A stretch of DNA of 37,845 bases from a virus (lineage: Duplodnaviria > Heunggongvirae > Uroviricota > Caudoviricetes): IMG/VR virus record IMGVR_UViG_2579779052_000009. One strand, given 5' to 3'. The first letter of the stretch is position 1. Each line of letters begins with the position of its first letter. Shown here one piece after another: positions 1 through 28,714 of the stretch. The position numbers and the translations under genes were made by a program. The notes below the pieces were generated by a model. It did no database searches, had not been told where the DNA came from, and saw only the letters and a program-made list of their open reading frames with translations.

Positions 1-738
1 TCATTCACTCTCTTTCAAACCAGTTTTAACTGTTTGTGGTTTTGGGTAAGGCTGGACTTTGAATAGCTTTGTGTTAAGGCGTTTTCTGGCTCTCTTGTCC
101 AGAAACCGGATGTAACGAAACTGACGGAATTTATGAACACTGGCTCTGTCGATATTAGCCCGCAGATGTTCACCTCGCTGTCCTCCTCGTTTGATTGCAT
201 TCTTGCAAATCTCGTGATACCACTCGCCATCAAGTTCATAGAATGTTGTTTCATGACTGCCTACATAATCAAAATTGCTTGCCTGGTACACGACACCAAG
301 ACAGCCACAACGCTCATCTGCAAACGACTGAACCCACTGCACCTGCGGATAAAGTTGTCTGATTAGTTTGAGCGCGTAACTGATTGCCCTTGATTCGGAG
401 TTTCTCGGCATACAGTCATGCAGCCATAACCGGTTAAGCTCCATATATTCGCGGTTCTGCGTGCCAGTTACGACGCGTGCACCATTGTTTGGATTAAGGG
501 CATAACCCCATTGCATTACGCCAACCAGCTCCCGTTCTGAAAATATGCCCAGATGAAGGTAGGAATTATTTACGAAACGATGGCTGTAATGTTTATTGAC
601 GACGACCAGCCGGGCCAGCCAGCAACTTATTGTCTCAACCCGTAACTCACGGGAGCCATAACCGACGATATTGTCGTTATAGTGAATAAGTTCAGGCGTG
701 CTGATGATACGGGATGTAACTTGCTTTCTGTTCCCCAC
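1..738 (-). CDS. mom: DNA modification protein Mom-like (start uncertain)
   Basis: Last gene at the Mu right-end position, immediately downstream of and overlapping a Com-like zinc-finger ORF; track ORF 1..933 is an N-terminal over-extension through com; about 230 codons lie beyond the com stop, matching Mu Mom length. No in-frame ATG near the expected start, so 738 (GTG) is a guess. Confidence 0.55.
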
Positions 739-892
739 GACAGGATTTCCTTGTGTATGTGGGGTGCTCTGTGGCGCTCTGAGATGTGATTTGATTGAGG
801 GTTTTACAGCGCGGACATTTGACTTCCAGATAACTGAAGCTGGCTCGTGCCAGTAGCTTGTTACAATGTCGGCACCGTATGTTTCGATACAT
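692..892 (-). CDS. com: Com-like zinc-finger translational activator of mom
   Basis: Translation [14 protein letters not shown]...VKCPRCK...EHPT carries the CxxC...CxxC Com zinc-finger pattern recalled from Mu Com; overlaps the mom 5' end as in Mu. Start taken at the internal ATG (track ORF 692..937 starts at an upstream TTG). Confidence 0.65.
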
Positions 893-937
893 GGCCGCAT
901 AACCTCCTGCTTTGTTGTTGATATCTTTATCACTCAA

Positions 938-1148
938 TCGATCGACAAAAACGATCGATTTGATTTATTTAATTGATACAACAAATAACACGAAATGTCA
1001 TTAGCGAAAATTTATGAGTTTGATCACTAATTTTAAACGGTGCTGTAACGCATAAGTGCTGAATGATTGTACATTTGAATACCGCAAAGCAAACAAATCA
1101 ACTAATTTATAGAAGTCAATTGGTTAATTGCCAGCGTAAGAGGCTGCT
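938..1148. promoter_or_regulatory. Divergent AT-rich regulatory region upstream of com/mom with three GATC sites
   Basis: GATC at about 940, 953 and 1022, the first two inside near-palindromic TCGATCGA octamers; lies between com (-) and a divergent + ORF. Mu Pmom is known to be Dam/OxyR regulated through upstream GATC sites. Confidence 0.4.
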
Positions 1149-1442
1149 ATGGACAATCATGTAACGACGAGAAATCGAAAAATGATTGAAAATGCGGAAA
1201 TCTATAATGATTATTTTTCCGATTATTCAGATGCCTGCAAATACAGTTCGAGTGCGGGAGAGTTCATATGCTTCAACTTTTTTATTAAATCTTATGTTTT
1301 TCCTCCACAGCAAGAAGATGGAGGTGTGCCACCTCCTGAAATCACTTTGCACCGTATAGCCTCCGTCTCAATGATGGAGCAACAGGCTAATGAGCTGTAT
1401 AGCATTCTGGGAACGATTCTACAAAAGCGTGAATCGGACTAA
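1149..1442 (+). CDS. hypothetical protein (97 aa), divergent from com/mom
   Basis: ORF with AAGAGG Shine-Dalgarno about 5 nt upstream of ATG; AT-rich; no recognisable family. Confidence 0.4.
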   Translation: MDNHVTTRNRKMIENAEIYNDYFSDYSDACKYSSSAGEFICFNFFIKSYVFPPQQEDGGVPPPEITLHRIASVSMMEQQANELYSILGTILQKRESD

Positions 1443-1577
1443 TGATACCGGTTCATTTGCCTGCCCGGATGGGGAAGCAGGATTGACTGCTCCATAAGCA
1501 GCTATATTTCTGAATACGAAATACTATCCAGCGATTACATATGGCTGGATAGCGGCAAAGATGTTTTCATTAGTGTC

Positions 1578-1603
1578 AAACCGGCAGAGGACACCACCGG
1601 TTT
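1578..1603. terminator. weak hairpin between convergent genes
   Basis: AAACCGG / CCGGTTT 7-bp inverted repeat with 12-nt loop between the + 97-aa ORF and the - 84-aa ORF; U-tract poor. Confidence 0.25.
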
Positions 1604-1609
1604 GTATTG

Positions 1610-1864
1610 TTACATCATGGTACTGTCAGTTCCGGGCTGAGCCGGGTCTGGTTGCTCTGGCTGCGCGTCGGTTTTCGGCTCATTATCAGCATCACTGGCC
1701 GCAACTGCTGGCCCAATAAGTTTTGCCAGCACTTCATCAACGTAAGTGTCGATTTGTGCCTCAAAATCCTTGCGGACCTGCGCTTTCAGTAATTTATTTA
1801 CTTCACCGGAATACAGTGCCTGTTTTACCAGGACTTCAGTGACGGTGCCTTTAATCTCTGGCAT
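1610..1864 (-). CDS. hypothetical protein (84 aa) with acidic Pro-rich C-terminus
   Basis: Canonical AGGAGG Shine-Dalgarno 6 nt upstream of ATG at 1864; no family assignment. Confidence 0.55.
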   Translation of the reverse strand: MPEIKGTVTEVLVKQALYSGEVNKLLKAQVRKDFEAQIDTYVDEVLAKLIGPAVAASDADNEPKTDAQPEQPDPAQPGTDSTMM

Positions 1865-1899
1865 GTATATCCTCCTTATGTGGGAATACAGCCCTGCAA

Positions 1900-2082
1900 T
1901 CAGGGCTGGGTCGGGTCTTTTGGGAGCGGAGTTGCCTGCGCTGTTTTACTGAGCTTTTCAGCTGCTGCGTCATCAATTTTGCGGCGAACATAATTTCTGA
2001 TGGCCTTATAACCACCGCTCACCAGATATAACGCACTGACCACAGTGCAGAAATAAAGCAGCATCGTATGAACAAATGTCAT
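1900..2082 (-). CDS. small single-pass membrane protein (60 aa)
   Basis: N-terminal hydrophobic helix LLYFCTVVSALYLVSGGY followed by charged tail; AAGG Shine-Dalgarno upstream of ATG. Confidence 0.4.
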   Translation of the reverse strand: MTFVHTMLLYFCTVVSALYLVSGGYKAIRNYVRRKIDDAAAEKLSKTAQATPLPKDPTQP

Positions 2083-2197
2083 ATAACCTTACCTTTGATA
2101 TTGACTACAGAAACAGTTTTCAGCTAAAAAGTAACCGCGTACATAATGGTCTTCTTTGTCAGAGGTTGTAGCTTTCCTTAATGGGTTTGGAATATCA

Positions 2198-2240
2198 CCC
2201 GCCAGTCAACAAATGGCTCTTTGACCGGCGGGATTTTTTT
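2198..2240. terminator. GC-rich hairpin with T-tract just downstream of the esterase gene
   Basis: CCCGCCAGTCAA ... TTGACCGGCGGG (11/12 complementary) followed by ATTTTTTTAT on +; A-tract on the other side, so possibly bidirectional. Confidence 0.4.
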
Positions 2241-2247
2241 ATCCTGC

Positions 2248-4302
2248 TTACGCGTTATTCACTTCCACCACGATACTGTCAATCAGTACCGGGTAAGTCG
2301 CATTTTTAGTGATATCGGTCACGCGCAACTTGTCTGCCGTAAACGTGCCGACCGGAGACTGCGACAGCATGAATGGTGTCCCGTCCTTACCATCAATGAC
2401 CGGCGTCACCTCAATACTGTTGTTACCGGCAAAACGGAAGCCCAGCGTATGCCATTCGTTATTAAATGCGCCGAATGACCCCAGCTTCGTGTTCTGCGCC
2501 GTGTTTCCTTTGTGATACATCACGTTAAGGTCTGTGGCATCGCTCTGTACGTAGAACGATGCCAGCAGGTTATGACCGGCATTTCCTTCCAGAGTAACCC
2601 CTTGCGGCAGGGCAGAAACCGGCCAGTACAGCGCCAGTGCGTACTGATTAGCCGTAAGCGCGCCATCGAGTTTAAAACGACAACTGACAAGACCACCTTT
2701 ACCCAGCAGGTCCGCACCATTACCAGCATCATGCTCAAGGTACCAGGGGGCTCTTCCTGTTTCCTTGGTCAGTTTCATTGCCTTACCCCCGCTGGCTCCG
2801 GCATCATCCACGATTTGAGCCTTGCCACCTCCGGCAGCCCAACCCTGTGGTGTCAACCGTCCTTCAGACTCAGATGCCCGGTAAGCAAATAGCGTACTCA
2901 TCGTCGTGGTGTCTGCGGGTGGCGTGGACGGTTTTGATGGTGTATCAGGTGACGGCTTCTCATCCGGTGGTGTCACGGTCTGCCCGCGCATCAGTTCAGC
3001 CGTGCGCCCTGCATGGAGCATAATAGCTGAGGCCAGACGGTCTGAAATGACGCCCCTGCGTGCCCATGAGCTGAAATGGCTGTCACGCTGTGTCGAAACA
3101 AAACTGCCCTGGGTTCGGGATGCTGCACCGTAATACCCGACAGCCACAATATCCGGGTCTTCCGCCGGAGCATTCGTTGGCGTGCTCTGTCCATTCTCAT
3201 CCGTCAGGAACGGTACAAAGAAAATTTTCTGTGCTTCCTTGCCTTTGTAGCCACCGTATACTGCCTCATATTTATCGGTGCCAGCGTTTTTCCAGTAATA
3301 CGTGGTATCACCGCAAATCCACGGCACCGTGGTGGCATTTCCACTCACGCACTGCGCAGCAAGCGGAGCCAGGTCAGTTCTGAACTGCTGAACCATGGCC
3401 GTGAATAAACTATTATGCTGCTGGCTTCCTGAGGCAAGGTCTGCCTCTCCCTGCATCCAGACCACAGCCAGAAGTTTGTTTTTCGGGTTTTTCGCCAGCG
3501 CGACTTTGGTGCGGCTTACCAGGTCCTGATACAGAGGTTTACCGGCCCCCCAGCGTGAAGAATCAGCGGAAGCACCGCTGGCCTCACTGAATGAGCCGTC
3601 GGCTCCAGTGGTGAATGCTGACCCGCCACGACAACAGGGCACCAGAAGTATCCCCGCATTCTGTGGGATATAGGGAAGCAGTTTTTTGGCAATATGCAAC
3701 CCCTGACCGACAGTCCCGTACTGGCCTTTTGCCAGATCAGCTTTCGGGTGGTTTATCCCGCTCATATCCTGAACATCATGCAGGCAGTGGTCTGCCGGAA
3801 TGATGTCGTTGTATGTACACGACGTACCGTTGGGCGTTACCGTACTGCGGCGTGCCAGTTGCTTAATGCGTGGGTCCGGGCGGTCAAACGAATCCGGTAA
3901 CGGCAGCCCCTCGCCGTAGGCCATGCCATTTGACTGACCCGCGAGAATGACAACAAAGTAATATTCCGGCTCTGAACTGCTGCCATTCGTGCTACCGGAA
4001 GGCCCGGCGTTATCCGGTGCATTCCAGTCGGAGGGCGTGAGCGTTCCGGCCACGTCAGATGTGATTGGAATGATGCCAGTCACGCCTGAACTGGTGATTT
4101 CTGCACTGGGATTACCGGATACCGGCATTACCCATAATGGCTCTTTCGTGCTGAAGCGGATCACGCAGTCTGCGAAGGTGATCCCCCCTTTATTACCCGA
4201 AGGGCGGAAAGGGCTTTCAATAAATGCCACCGTGCCACCGGCAACCTTGACTGAAAACTCTCCGGGCATGGCGGAGAGCATTTTCCACTTGGAGTCTGAC
4301 AT
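2248..4302 (-). CDS. SASA/SGNH-type carbohydrate O-acetylesterase, multidomain (NanS-p-like)
   Basis: Central block YYFVVILAGQSNGMAYGEG resembles the GQSN catalytic-serine motif of sialate O-acetylesterase (SASA) domains; Ser/Gly- and Pro/Thr-rich linkers separate an N-terminal domain and a beta-rich C-terminal domain. Sits where the G segment and gin would be in Mu. Confidence 0.65.
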   Translation of the reverse strand: MSDSKWKMLSAMPGEFSVKVAGGTVAFIESPFRPSGNKGGITFADCVIRFSTKEPLWVMPVSGNPSAEITSSGVTGIIPITSDVAGTLTPSDWNAPDNAGPSGSTNGSSSEPEYYFVVILAGQSNGMAYGEGLPLPDSFDRPDPRIKQLARRSTVTPNGTSCTYNDIIPADHCLHDVQDMSGINHPKADLAKGQYGTVGQGLHIAKKLLPYIPQNAGILLVPCCRGGSAFTTGADGSFSEASGASADSSRWGAGKPLYQDLVSRTKVALAKNPKNKLLAVVWMQGEADLASGSQQHNSLFTAMVQQFRTDLAPLAAQCVSGNATTVPWICGDTTYYWKNAGTDKYEAVYGGYKGKEAQKIFFVPFLTDENGQSTPTNAPAEDPDIVAVGYYGAASRTQGSFVSTQRDSHFSSWARRGVISDRLASAIMLHAGRTAELMRGQTVTPPDEKPSPDTPSKPSTPPADTTTMSTLFAYRASESEGRLTPQGWAAGGGKAQIVDDAGASGGKAMKLTKETGRAPWYLEHDAGNGADLLGKGGLVSCRFKLDGALTANQYALALYWPVSALPQGVTLEGNAGHNLLASFYVQSDATDLNVMYHKGNTAQNTKLGSFGAFNNEWHTLGFRFAGNNSIEVTPVIDGKDGTPFMLSQSPVGTFTADKLRVTDITKNATYPVLIDSIVVEVNNA

Positions 4303-4606
4303 CGTCTTTTCTGCCTGTTTCTGAATTAAACAGAGTCAGAATAACAACCGCTGATAAATATGTGTTTTGCGGAAATTCAAAAAAAGCATCACGGTACTTT
4401 TTGTGACGGAGCCGGTTAGGCAGGAACATAACGACAAAGGATGGACAGGCCAATACGATAACCGCATATTACCGGCTTATAATTGATTTGACGATTCATG
4501 ACGCTGCGGTCAGCATCTGAAAATATGCGTTATTTCAGAAACCCCTTGCCTGTATATGGCGATATTATTATTCCTGTTTTTATCATTGATTTACATGGTG
4601 ATGTTT

Positions 4607-8751: not shown

Positions 8752-9865
8752 AGCTGATCCCCTGTTTTTTCATCTGCTGGCGAATAAAGGCATCAACATC
8801 GTCACCGGAACCACCCCGGCCCTTACTGTCCGGCTCTGCCGGAACGATAAAGCCGTCACGCGGTGCCAGTACCAGCCGGGTGACTTCCCCGTTATGTTCA
8901 TCAAGTAAAAACTCCACCTGACAGACCAGCAGTTCAGTCTGTTCTATACCGAAACGCAGGGCTGAAACACCGGTCAGCAGATTGACATCCCATAACCGGC
9001 CATCATCCCGGAACCAGCCACGCACGGTGGCAGAAAACCGTTCTGAACGGGCAATCGCACGGCGCATTTCACGCAGGGCACGCTGCCGTGCACCGGTGGT
9101 GTCTGTCTGTTGATCGGCGAGGATGATTTTCGGCCGGTAGCGGCCGATCTGCTCATCACTGATGACGCCCACAGGTGCTGCCAGACGGGCGGCGGATTCG
9201 CTGTCTCCCCGTTTGCCACCACCGCGCCCGTGTCCCCGGACACGGTATTCGCTGTATCGTCCTCGCCAGTCCGTGTTGTAATCGGCATCAAGCAGGTTAT
9301 CTCCCAGCACCAGTCTGTCCGTCTGCTGGCTTCCTGCCTGGGTGAACACCAGATCGCCGTCAGCATTACTGGTCACCAGCACCCCGCGATGCCGGGCAGC
9401 ACGGGTCAGCGCATCCGCCACGGTTTCTGAGTTTTCCAGCGTAAAAGAGCTGAAGGGGCGTGCAGCCGTGTCGTCGTTAACCTGCCAGCGCACGGCTATC
9501 CCGAAGGGCGCACATAAATCTGCGGCAATCTGTGCCAGCGTCCGGTTGCGCCACTGGCTGCCGGGATGGATGGCGGCACAGTCCACCAGGTCGCCGGTTT
9601 TATCCCGACCGCTGATGCTGATCTGATGACGGGTTGCACTGATCCGCTGACTGACCTGATCCAGCCAGCCACTGATGACCGTCTGCCCGTTAATTCTGAG
9701 CGTCAGGGACTGACCGGTTCGCAGGGCTGAGGGGATGCGCTCACCGGGCAGCATCAGCCCCAGTTCAAACGACCCGGCCAGATGCTCCAGCGAGCGACGG
9801 ACGCTGACCGTCAGCCAGCCGGAAAAAATACTGCCACCGATATACAGTTCAATCCTGCTGCTCAC
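8741..9865 (-). CDS. tail protein P-like (Mu gp44)
   Basis: Position after N; start placed at a GTG preceded by GGAGGGGA, a few nt upstream of the N stop; the track ORF begins 51 codons earlier inside N. Confidence 0.55.
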   Translation of the reverse strand: MSSRIELYIGGSIFSGWLTVSVRRSLEHLAGSFELGLMLPGERIPSALRTGQSLTLRINGQTVISGWLDQVSQRISATRHQISISGRDKTGDLVDCAAIHPGSQWRNRTLAQIAADLCAPFGIAVRWQVNDDTAARPFSSFTLENSETVADALTRAARHRGVLVTSNADGDLVFTQAGSQQTDRLVLGDNLLDADYNTDWRGRYSEYRVRGHGRGGGKRGDSESAARLAAPVGVISDEQIGRYRPKIILADQQTDTTGARQRALREMRRAIARSERFSATVRGWFRDDGRLWDVNLLTGVSALRFGIEQTELLVCQVEFLLDEHNGEVTRLVLAPRDGFIVPAEPDSKGRGGSGDDVDAFIRQQMKKQGISFDE

Positions 9866-19475: not shown

Positions 19476-19652
19476 TCCGGCAGCATAAGCCGGTGTTTTT
19501 CGGGGCCGGTTTTGCGGGACTTCAGAAAGTGCTGACAGGGGAAAAATGAGAAAGGCGCTTCACGCAGATTTTAAAGCCCGTTAAATACAGGTTAGAAAAT
19601 CACGACACGCGCCTGAAGAGGGTAAGGCAATGCGTTTGTATACCTTAAACCA
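19476..19652 (-). promoter_or_regulatory. ORF-free gap upstream of the I-like gene; candidate late promoter
   Basis: 177-bp gap between G and I; Mu has a C-activated late promoter in front of I. Confidence 0.3.
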
Positions 19653-27637: not shown

Positions 27638-27708
27638 TGTTACGCTGTCTCATGGTGTTCTCTGAGTCAGCGTAACCGTGGGAAAAAGTGGGCAGGATTT
27701 GCGGAATA

Positions 27709-28131
27709 TCAGAAAAGCCGTGGCTGCGTGCGTTCCTGATGCAGGCGACGCTGGTTGCGGATAACGGAGTAAATCTGCGTCTCTGACATCTGGTAGTGGC
27801 GGCGCAGGGTTTCAATTTTTTCGCCCTGGCTCCAGCGGGAAAAAATTTCATTATTGCGCAGTTCGGTGAAAAGGGATTCACCGACCGGGAGATAATAACC
27901 ACGCCCGCCCATGTACCCGGCCTGTGCGGCTGCAACCTTACGGGCAAGCATTCCCGCCTGAGCAGGTTCAATCCCCTGACGGTGCAGTTCAGCACTGATC
28001 ACATCAACCAGGTCCCGCAGCGTGCCGGGCCAGTTCTTTTTCAGCTCATCATCAGGAATATCATCCAGACGGTCAATCAGCGCGTGCAGCTGTTCGCTGT
28101 CACCAAACATGCTCATCTGTGTTTCAGCCAT
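27709..28131 (-). CDS. Mor/C-family late transcription activator
   Basis: 140 aa; C-terminal half (SRWSQGEKIETLRRHYQMSETQIYSVIRNQRR) resembles the Mor/C DNA-binding region as recalled; located between gemA and lys as in Mu. Confidence 0.65.
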   Translation of the reverse strand: MAETQMSMFGDSEQLHALIDRLDDIPDDELKKNWPGTLRDLVDVISAELHRQGIEPAQAGMLARKVAAAQAGYMGGRGYYLPVGESLFTELRNNEIFSRWSQGEKIETLRRHYQMSETQIYSVIRNQRRLHQERTQPRLF

Positions 28132-28164
28132 ACCCGCCTCCGGTCATCATTACACAGGGCAAGT

Positions 28165-28194
28165 TTAAAATAAAAATCCCGCGCTGTGGCGGGG
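28165..28194 (-). terminator. intrinsic terminator between gemA and the Mor/C gene
   Basis: On the - strand CCCCGCC-acagc-GCGGG followed by ATTTTTATTTT. Confidence 0.45.
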
Positions 28195-28201
28195 TTTGGG
28201 G

Positions 28202-28714
28202 TTAAAAGGGGGAGGATTCTTCATACAGCCTGCAAACGCGCTCATAACTCATCACTGTACGCGCTGACATCCCCAGCACATCCAGCATCTTGCGGCGGTG
28301 CCAGCGTTTGAGACGCTCCAGCACATCAGAGGCCAGCGCGGGGTGTTGTTCCAGCCACTGCCAGTTAGCCACACCTTCGCCGCCGTTCTGAGCGGCCGTC
28401 TGCGATTTCACCCAGCGGTTAAGGGCTGTTTCCCCGCCATCAGAGATAAAGCCCTGCCGGTGCATCACCTTCCAGATGGCGCGAATTTTGGCGGTCACCG
28501 TACCCGGTTTTAAGGCCCGGTTAACCGGCTTCTGACGCACTTTAAAACCGCGTTTTTTGAAAACATCCAGCACGCGGGATAACTCATCCGGTGACATATC
28601 CCGGCAACTGGGTTTGCCGGTGGCTGCCAGTAGTACGGATGTGTAGGTCTCATGGTCAAGCTGTAGATCGCGTTTTGCGACATGTATTAAGGTAATCAGG
28701 GAAGCGCGATTCAT
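28202..28714 (-). CDS. gemA: GemA/gp16-like regulatory protein
   Basis: 170 aa at the gemA position immediately upstream of the Mor/C gene. Confidence 0.6.
   Translation of the reverse strand: MNRASLITLIHVAKRDLQLDHETYTSVLLAATGKPSCRDMSPDELSRVLDVFKKRGFKVRQKPVNRALKPGTVTAKIRAIWKVMHRQGFISDGGETALNRWVKSQTAAQNGGEGVANWQWLEQHPALASDVLERLKRWHRRKMLDVLGMSARTVMSYERVCRLYEESSPF

Follow-up and report, generated by a model that had tools for sequence, protein, structure and literature searches.

A predicted Dam-methylation-sensitive OxyR operator upstream of com-mom in a Mu-like E. coli prophage

The DNA analyzed here over its full length of 37,845 nt, hereafter the window, comprises an entire Mu-like prophage, which is in reverse orientation. 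E. coli chromosomes carry DNA identical to the window, with 100% identity to strain JE86-ST05, and E. coli possesses both Dam and OxyR. The window begins, on the minus strand, with two overlapping genes, com and mom. The com gene (692-892, ATG at 892) encodes a 66 aa zinc ribbon protein (Pfam PF10122, E 7.5e-13) that aligns with Mu Com, and mom (1-738; PF25680) encodes a protein with 78% identity to Mu Mom. The GTG start codon of mom, at 738, is located inside the 3′-end of com, 47 nt ahead of the end of the com stop codon (692), as is also the case in Mu. This arrangement, in which a Com zinc ribbon gene precedes and overlaps a Mom gene whose non-ATG start is within com, is that of a com-mom operon, and the com product is predicted to be the translational activator of mom. 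The Mom enzyme modifies DNA, is toxic and allows evasion of restriction, and its control circuit in Mu is a textbook example of methylation-dependent regulation. A Shine-Dalgarno sequence, AGGAGG, precedes com (903-908, minus strand). Two nt past this AGGAGG there is also an ATG (898-900, minus strand) that is in the mom frame, with the com ATG following 8 nt later, and the mom frame is open across all of com, resulting in 300 codons from the ATG at 900 to the stop at position 1 (region 1-933).

The phage encodes a Mor/C-family late activator (27709-28131, minus strand; PF08765, E 6.7e-31; phrog_532) with identities of 40% to Mu C and 28% to Mor. Among the ORFs scanned between gemA and lys (27709-28714), a single Mor/C-family gene is apparent. 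Mu has Mor, a middle operon and C, and this difference suggests that the regulatory cascade of the phage is shortened relative to that of Mu. Genes encoding an endolysin, a transposase and other Mu-type functions are located further along the window. The position occupied in Mu by gin and the G segment, from com to the tail genes, is taken up in this phage by cargo, namely a plus-strand orphan gene encoding 97 aa, DUF826 and DUF1378 genes and an esterase gene.

Three GATC sites are present upstream of com, at 940-943, 953-956 and 1022-1025, starting 51, 64 and 133 nt, respectively, before the com ATG, and there are no others in positions 1-3734. Both this number and the location of two of the sites within palindromes had been noted in the original prediction, and both are confirmed, the site at 940 being within TCGATCGA and that at 953 within ACGATCGAT. 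Based on composition, 0.21 GATC is expected in the 90 bp, AT-rich (28% GC) segment from 936 to 1025 in which the three are found. Over the window as a whole, GATC is depleted, with 111 present versus 143 in shuffled sequences, and the sites lie between two GATC deserts: 1-939, containing mom and com, with none versus 3.6 expected, and 1026-3734, the cargo region with the 97-aa gene, DUF826, DUF1378 and the 3′-part of the esterase gene, with none versus 10.5 expected. The sites at 940 and 953 form the only GATC pair with a separation of 13 bp in the window, and also the only ATCG-N7-CGAT. The third site by itself is not significant, as ~0.8 GATC is expected across the 256-bp intergenic region, and there are other three-GATC clusters in the window, for example at 9620-9661. 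A functionless cluster that arose by chance is plausible for the third site; as an explanation for the pair it is scarcely credible, given three sites versus 0.21 expected and, as described below, a palindrome that is perfect, does not vary among haplotypes and is conserved in distant com lineages.

The promoter-proximal Dam site (940-943) and the second Dam site (953-956), 13 bp from the first, are both contained in a perfect 25-bp inverted repeat, AATCGATCG-N7-CGATCGATT (936-960), one of six perfect inverted repeats with 9-bp arms that are present at five loci in the window. On the com strand, the repeat reads ATCG-N7-CGAT, which is the layout of one OxyR dimer site. The predicted OxyR dimer half-site, ATCGTTTTTGTCGAT (941-955, minus strand), conforms to the consensus ATAGnTnnnAnCTAT at 7/10 positions and, in the same register, the validated agn43 and gtr A/C half-sites have 8/10 and Mu 7/10. 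A putative second half-site, ATCAATTAAATAAAT (963-977, minus strand), is GATC-free, conforms at 6/10 positions and is positioned at N7 spacing, so that two ATAGnTnnnAnCTAT half-sites with suitable spacing are recognizable, as a moderate match in an AT-rich context. The 37-mer from 941 to 977 has 13/20 matches to the OxyR consensus, the joint top score of ~37,800 window positions in a region whose AT-richness inflates scores, and several 12/20 matches cluster near the operator. The same-register 37-mers score 14/20 for agn43 and 13/20 for Mu, with validated sites at 13-14. As in agn43, Mu and gtr A/C, a GATC-N9-GATC pair is positioned inside one dimer half-site. The core of the site has homology to defined operators, with 21/23 positions identical to the agn43 (flu) core of E. 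coli K-12 (ATCGATCGTTTATATCGATCGAT versus ATCGATCGTTTTTGTCGATCGAT in the window), 17/23 identical to the Mu core and flanking sequences that are also common with Mu. The agn43 identity, the GATC-N9-GATC geometry of Mu and gtr and the retention of the 13-bp pair across enterobacterial com genes argue that this is very likely an OxyR operator, and we estimate a probability of roughly 0.75 that the sequence from 941 to 977 is a Dam-methylation-sensitive OxyR operator that guards com-mom of this Mu-like E. coli prophage.

An unbiased sample of 401 Enterobacteriaceae genomes was searched by Com similarity, rather than for GATC, and five com homologues were identified. The 13-bp GATC pair is present upstream of com in all five, including those with only 37-56% Com identity. 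It is also present in Mu, D108 and Chuche (a P2-like phage) and in prophages of Citrobacter and Salmonella that were identified by Com similarity in GTDB genomes. Every enterobacterial com homologue retrieved, down to 37% Com identity, has the pair, with the exception of one deletion variant. In this variant (L010, 1440-1500), a Chuche-type operator retains a single GATC, apparently following recombination between GATCGAT repeats; the record is labelled Vagococcus, and the sequence looks enterobacterial. Most of these loci have a third GATC, 18-19 bp further upstream, that is absent from the window type and the Citrobacter type. Of the 127 matches to CGATCG-N8-GATCGATT in IMG/VR, 41 have a com zinc-ribbon ORF downstream. 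No GATC cluster is present at the com genes of Pasteurellaceae and non-enteric bacteria; Pasteurellaceae hosts too have Dam and OxyR, and the operator is therefore not universal to com.

The 9 bp that separate the two GATCs are asymmetric, and this spacer is inverted between some of these lineages, being gtttttatc in Citrobacter (L008, 1430-1455) and gataaaaac in Chuche (L004, 1440-1465), and similarly ggtaataca in an IMG/VR contig (L091, 2993-3014) versus tgtattacc in Mu (L001, 2177-2198), with the flanking repeat arms unmoved. This pattern suggests inversion or template switching within the palindrome, and spacer inversion between sister lineages is as expected for a symmetric site bound by a dimeric protein. 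The operator-com cassette precedes three unrelated DNA-modification genes. These encode Mom in the window and in Mu, a C5-cytosine methyltransferase that has PCQ and ENV motifs in a Mu-like phage borne by an Stx phage (L002, minus strand, downstream of com) and in Citrobacter (L008, 1517-2700), and a methyltransferase with a DPPY motif that follows com in Chuche and Salmonella (L004, 1643-2434, and L009).

As a perfect palindrome can bind any dimeric protein, and the matches to the OxyR consensus are just 7/10 and 6/10, the inverted repeat could be read by a different protein, such as the phage activator, another phage protein or SeqA, or could form a DNA or RNA hairpin, with the GATCs as a by-product. 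A consensus scan does flag 936-960 together with TGATTTATTT as resembling a plus-strand terminator, but there is no upstream plus-strand gene to terminate and the stem has only 4 G-C pairs. Across com loci with 37-100% Com identity, the constant features are the GATCs and their 13-bp spacing and not the sequence of the stem. At agn43 and gtr, sites of this sequence class have been proven by experiment to be OxyR sites, and the class is also found upstream of com in P2-like phages that do not have a Mor/C activator. A reader other than OxyR, or a hairpin, is consequently quite improbable.

Within the window type, there are 11 distinct haplotypes, among which the operator and ~45 bp upstream are nearly invariant, the inverted repeat being invariant and the putative upstream half-site (963-977) nearly so. 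Adjoining the operator on the com side is a patch of 13 nt (924-936, minus strand) that is hypervariable, with 2-4 alleles per column in the 11 haplotypes, and constant in length. The ~200 bp downstream of this patch, com included, are almost invariant, and divergence within the patch exceeds that at the synonymous sites of com. The patch is possibly a promoter spacer.

Based on the distance from the start of the proximal GATC to the com ATG, the com control regions fall into two architectural classes. In the long class, this distance is 76-80 nt (Mu, D108, L164 and L165) or ~88 nt (L166) and, with L166 left out of the comparison, a C box of the ATAACC type is present between the operator and promoter in Mu and L165 and there is only a loose look-alike in L164. 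In the short class, comprised of the window, Citrobacter and Chuche types, the distance is 51-52 nt, which leaves no room downstream of the operator for both a C box and a core promoter. No Mu C box (TTAT-N6-ATAACC) was found between the operator and com in the window. The phage does appear to have a late-promoter box of its own, (T)TCCGCAAA(A/T)C(C/A), located 19-20 nt before TA(C/T)NCT upstream of lys, the esterase gene and the I-like gene. These three candidates, read from the sequence on the minus strand at 27695-27706, 4363-4374 and 19508-19519, are TTCCGCAAATCC (lys), TTCCGCAAAACA (esterase gene) and TCCCGCAAAACC (I-like gene), and have in common the core CCGCAAA(A/T)C. The lys copy is kept in a sister phage (L162) with an activator that is 84% identical. 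No conserved copy of CCGCAAA(A/T)C is present upstream of com. The sequence at 998-1009 was considered as a C-activator site and rejected, being a weak 8/12 look-alike that is absent from haplotypes of the L002 type. Mu's own C sites are loosely conserved.

These observations bear on whether the same OxyR/Dam operator is wired exactly as in Mu, as a remote upstream repressor site ahead of a weak late promoter that needs a C-type activator. The phage does encode a Mor/C-family activator, all candidate com promoters are weak, which suggests activator dependence, and mom is a late and toxic function in Mu (PMC3378877). We consider this wiring doubtful, as the 47 nt between the proximal GATC and the com ATG, compared with 74 nt in Mu and ~74-84 nt for the Mu-type arrangement, are too few to accommodate a C site, a core promoter and a leader, there is no Mu C box, and the phage's own late box has no conserved counterpart before com. 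The original prediction that the C activator controls this operon as in Mu is not borne out by the same features and, with Mu's third GATC also missing, the Mu architecture is not conserved.

The preferred reading, an OxyR operator that overlaps the core promoter, depends on where com transcription is initiated. A strict consensus promoter scan identified nothing on the com strand, and a PWM scan returned many weak candidates in the AT-rich spacer, none of them decisive. One candidate, identified by hand by analogy to P22 gtr, has TCGATC (945-940) as the -35 element, a 16-bp spacer and TATCAA (923-918, minus strand) as the -10 element, so that the GATCs would be near -33 and -46 and the -35 element would be covered by the OxyR site. 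This candidate is outside the top candidates of the PWM scan, and its -10 sequence is TATCAT or CATCAA in sister haplotypes, CATCAA in most. The hypervariable, length-constant 13 nt fall between its two hexamers, as would a spacer. The alternative candidate, further upstream (973-1001, minus strand; PWM score 8.5), has ATGACA (996-1001) and TATCAA (973-978), separated by 17 bp, as the -35 and -10 elements, and both hexamers are kept in the L002-type haplotypes. Neither candidate has a good -10 element. The operator 37-mer ends 48 nt ahead of the com ATG and would be at -66 to -30 relative to the first candidate and at about -11 to +26, just downstream of the promoter as at agn43, relative to the second. 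By analogy with gtr and agn43, the operator probably overlaps the core promoter; it is most probably not a remote element before a C-activated promoter, and OxyR would then act by direct occlusion.

The third GATC (1022-1025) was originally considered part of the same conserved element. It is located outside the conserved com control module, in the variable, cargo-specific part of the intergenic region, and the sequence that would correspond to Mu's real third site is absent: there is no GATC 18-19 bp upstream of the 940/953 pair, the nearest look-alike being a TATC 22 bp upstream. The com module is present in 233 E. coli genomes, among 5426 complete genomes. The megablast similarity common to these 233 genomes ends at ~987, with weaker similarity extending to ~1001, and beyond this boundary other haplotypes carry unrelated cargo. 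As GATC 1022 is conserved only in near-identical copies, its conservation is uninformative, and the site is probably incidental and compatible with chance.

The divergent ORF that had been noted does exist (1149-1442, plus strand). It encodes 97 aa, or 86 aa from the RefSeq start at 1182, and the protein has no match in Pfam, PHROG, NCBIfam or PADLOC. Its homologues are near-identical, only in E. coli and Shigella and always in the same context. The operator, and perhaps also GATC 1022, which is alone in a GATC desert, could constitute a bidirectional switch that also controls this gene. In Mu, a divergent promoter, momP2, overlaps Pmom (PMC3378877). In the window, the best plus-strand promoter-like site, TTGATA (973-978) and TGTCAT (996-1001) separated by 17 bp, overlaps the upstream half-site, and a second, TCGACA (942-947) followed after 16 bp by TTTATT, is within the operator. 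Such hexamers are, however, common in this spacer of 34% GC, a distance of 172 bp separates the operator from the ATG at 1149, and the gene falls outside the conserved module and is carried by only 18 of the 233 genomes that have the module. Bidirectional control is therefore unlikely, and the shared control suggested in the original prediction is unsupported; both the divergent gene and the third GATC are probably bystanders.

The mechanism we propose for the 940/953 operator is as follows. When both GATCs are unmethylated, or perhaps hemimethylated, an OxyR tetramer would bind and transcription of com-mom would be shut off. Full methylation by the host Dam would prevent OxyR binding and so make the promoter available, and Mom synthesis would then further require Com to open the GTG start at 738. 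The original prediction was to be given up if the GATCs were always methylated with no effect of dam or oxyR. This is too strict, as methylation of the Mu sites is the normal state in dam+ cells, and it is in dam- cells or with hemimethylated DNA that an effect of OxyR is visible. Literature searches found no methylome or expression data for the com operators of Mu-like prophages. With the operator on an activator-independent core promoter, com-mom in a lysogen might be a heritable Dam/OxyR ON/OFF switch, as are agn43 and gtr, with a Mom-expressing subpopulation, phase-variable modification and an ON level tuned by the 13-nt patch, although we regard this extended scheme as rather improbable. 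If it were correct, Mom would be expressed in a small fraction of the cells that carry the prophage, with modified adenines in host and phage DNA, this phase-variable modification could alter sensitivity to restriction and defence systems, and the hypervariable patch would be a tuning knob. The locus does provide an opportunity to test whether prophage DNA-modification genes are bistable in expression. More generally, the Dam/OxyR operator plus com appears to be a portable control cassette, found in both Mu-like and P2-like prophages, that drives three unrelated DNA-modifying enzymes. The E. coli prophage family represented by the window is common and has a stripped-down, two-site form of this operator, probably set against the promoter, a natural test of the number and geometry of Dam sites that OxyR requires.

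Mu, which has the same host and a homologous operon, is among the closest known systems. Binding of OxyR/MomR to unmethylated Mu mom GATC sites was reportedly described by Bolker and Kahmann in 1989 and by Hattman and Sun in 1997. PMC3378877 describes a mom region I with three GATC sites that are bound by OxyR/MomR if unmethylated. Alignment with the Mu Pmom region, the comparison that had been proposed, identifies 953 and 940 as the counterparts of Mu GATC sites 2 and 3, respectively, with the same 13-bp spacing. When anchored on com, common flanks are also seen, ATCAATTAAAT...CGATCG-N8-GATCGATT. Searches of 50,697 phage records with this region by blastn and megablast matched only two Stx phages with an inserted Mu-like phage, and not Mu itself, so that homology to Mu is visible solely through the com anchor. 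Mu has a third GATC that precedes its pair by 18 bp (spacings of 18 and 13), and the Mu operator is at about -88 to -54, followed by the C box and a promoter with a 19-bp spacer, whereas the operator in the window is 27 bp nearer com. Of the proposal that this is a Dam/OxyR switch as in Mu, what stands is the correspondence of sites 940 and 953 to Mu sites 2 and 3 and to validated operators; the third GATC, the C control and the shared divergent control are without such support.

At agn43, the sites at 940 and 953 have GATC-III and GATC-II, respectively, as counterparts, the identity spans ATCGATCGTTT.T.TCGATCGAT, and the two-half-site N7 register is the same. There are three GATCs at agn43, with spacings of 19 and 13, and two in the window. 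agn43 encodes an adhesin of the host, and its heritable ON/OFF switching is proven. The agn43 operator is just downstream of the transcription start, and the same would be true in the window if the upstream candidate promoter is real. The Mu sequence immediately upstream of GATC site 1 (ATAGAAAACGACGATC; L001, 2145-2165) resembles the -10/+1 region of agn43 (ATAGAATAAAACGATC; L155, 403-421), and agn43 is located in a cryptic prophage, CP4-44. The sequences hint at a common ancestry for the Mu mom and agn43 control regions.

The P22 gtr promoter has two GATC pairs, GATCggtaacaacGATC and GATCgcttgtatcGATC, with a GATC-N9-GATC layout identical to that in the window, and GATC4 and GATC3 are the counterparts of 940 and 953. 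Each gtr pair is within one OxyR dimer half-site, Dam methylation of one pair abolishes OxyR binding, and the core promoter has GATC3 at -46 and GATC4 at -33 (Broadbent et al. 2010, PMC2909390), the geometry predicted here if the -10 element is at 918-923. There are three half-sites at gtr, with N17 spacing, that provide alternative activating and repressing positions for OxyR, and in the window one two-half-site (N7) position is evident. Among com loci, the Chuche P2-like prophage and the Mu-like cassettes of Citrobacter and of Stx phages share with the window the operator core and the short architecture, in which 51-52 nt lead from the proximal GATC to the com ATG. The Chuche type has three GATCs and a strong extended -10 element, TGcTATCAT, 7 bp past the operator, and the Citrobacter type has TATACT as a likewise strong -10 element, also 7 bp past the operator, so that in both of these types the operator, as read from these elements, would clearly overlap the core promoter. 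The locus upstream of com in the window is best described as an expected homologue, with no new mechanism, and as a two-site, promoter-proximal natural variant of a known switch.
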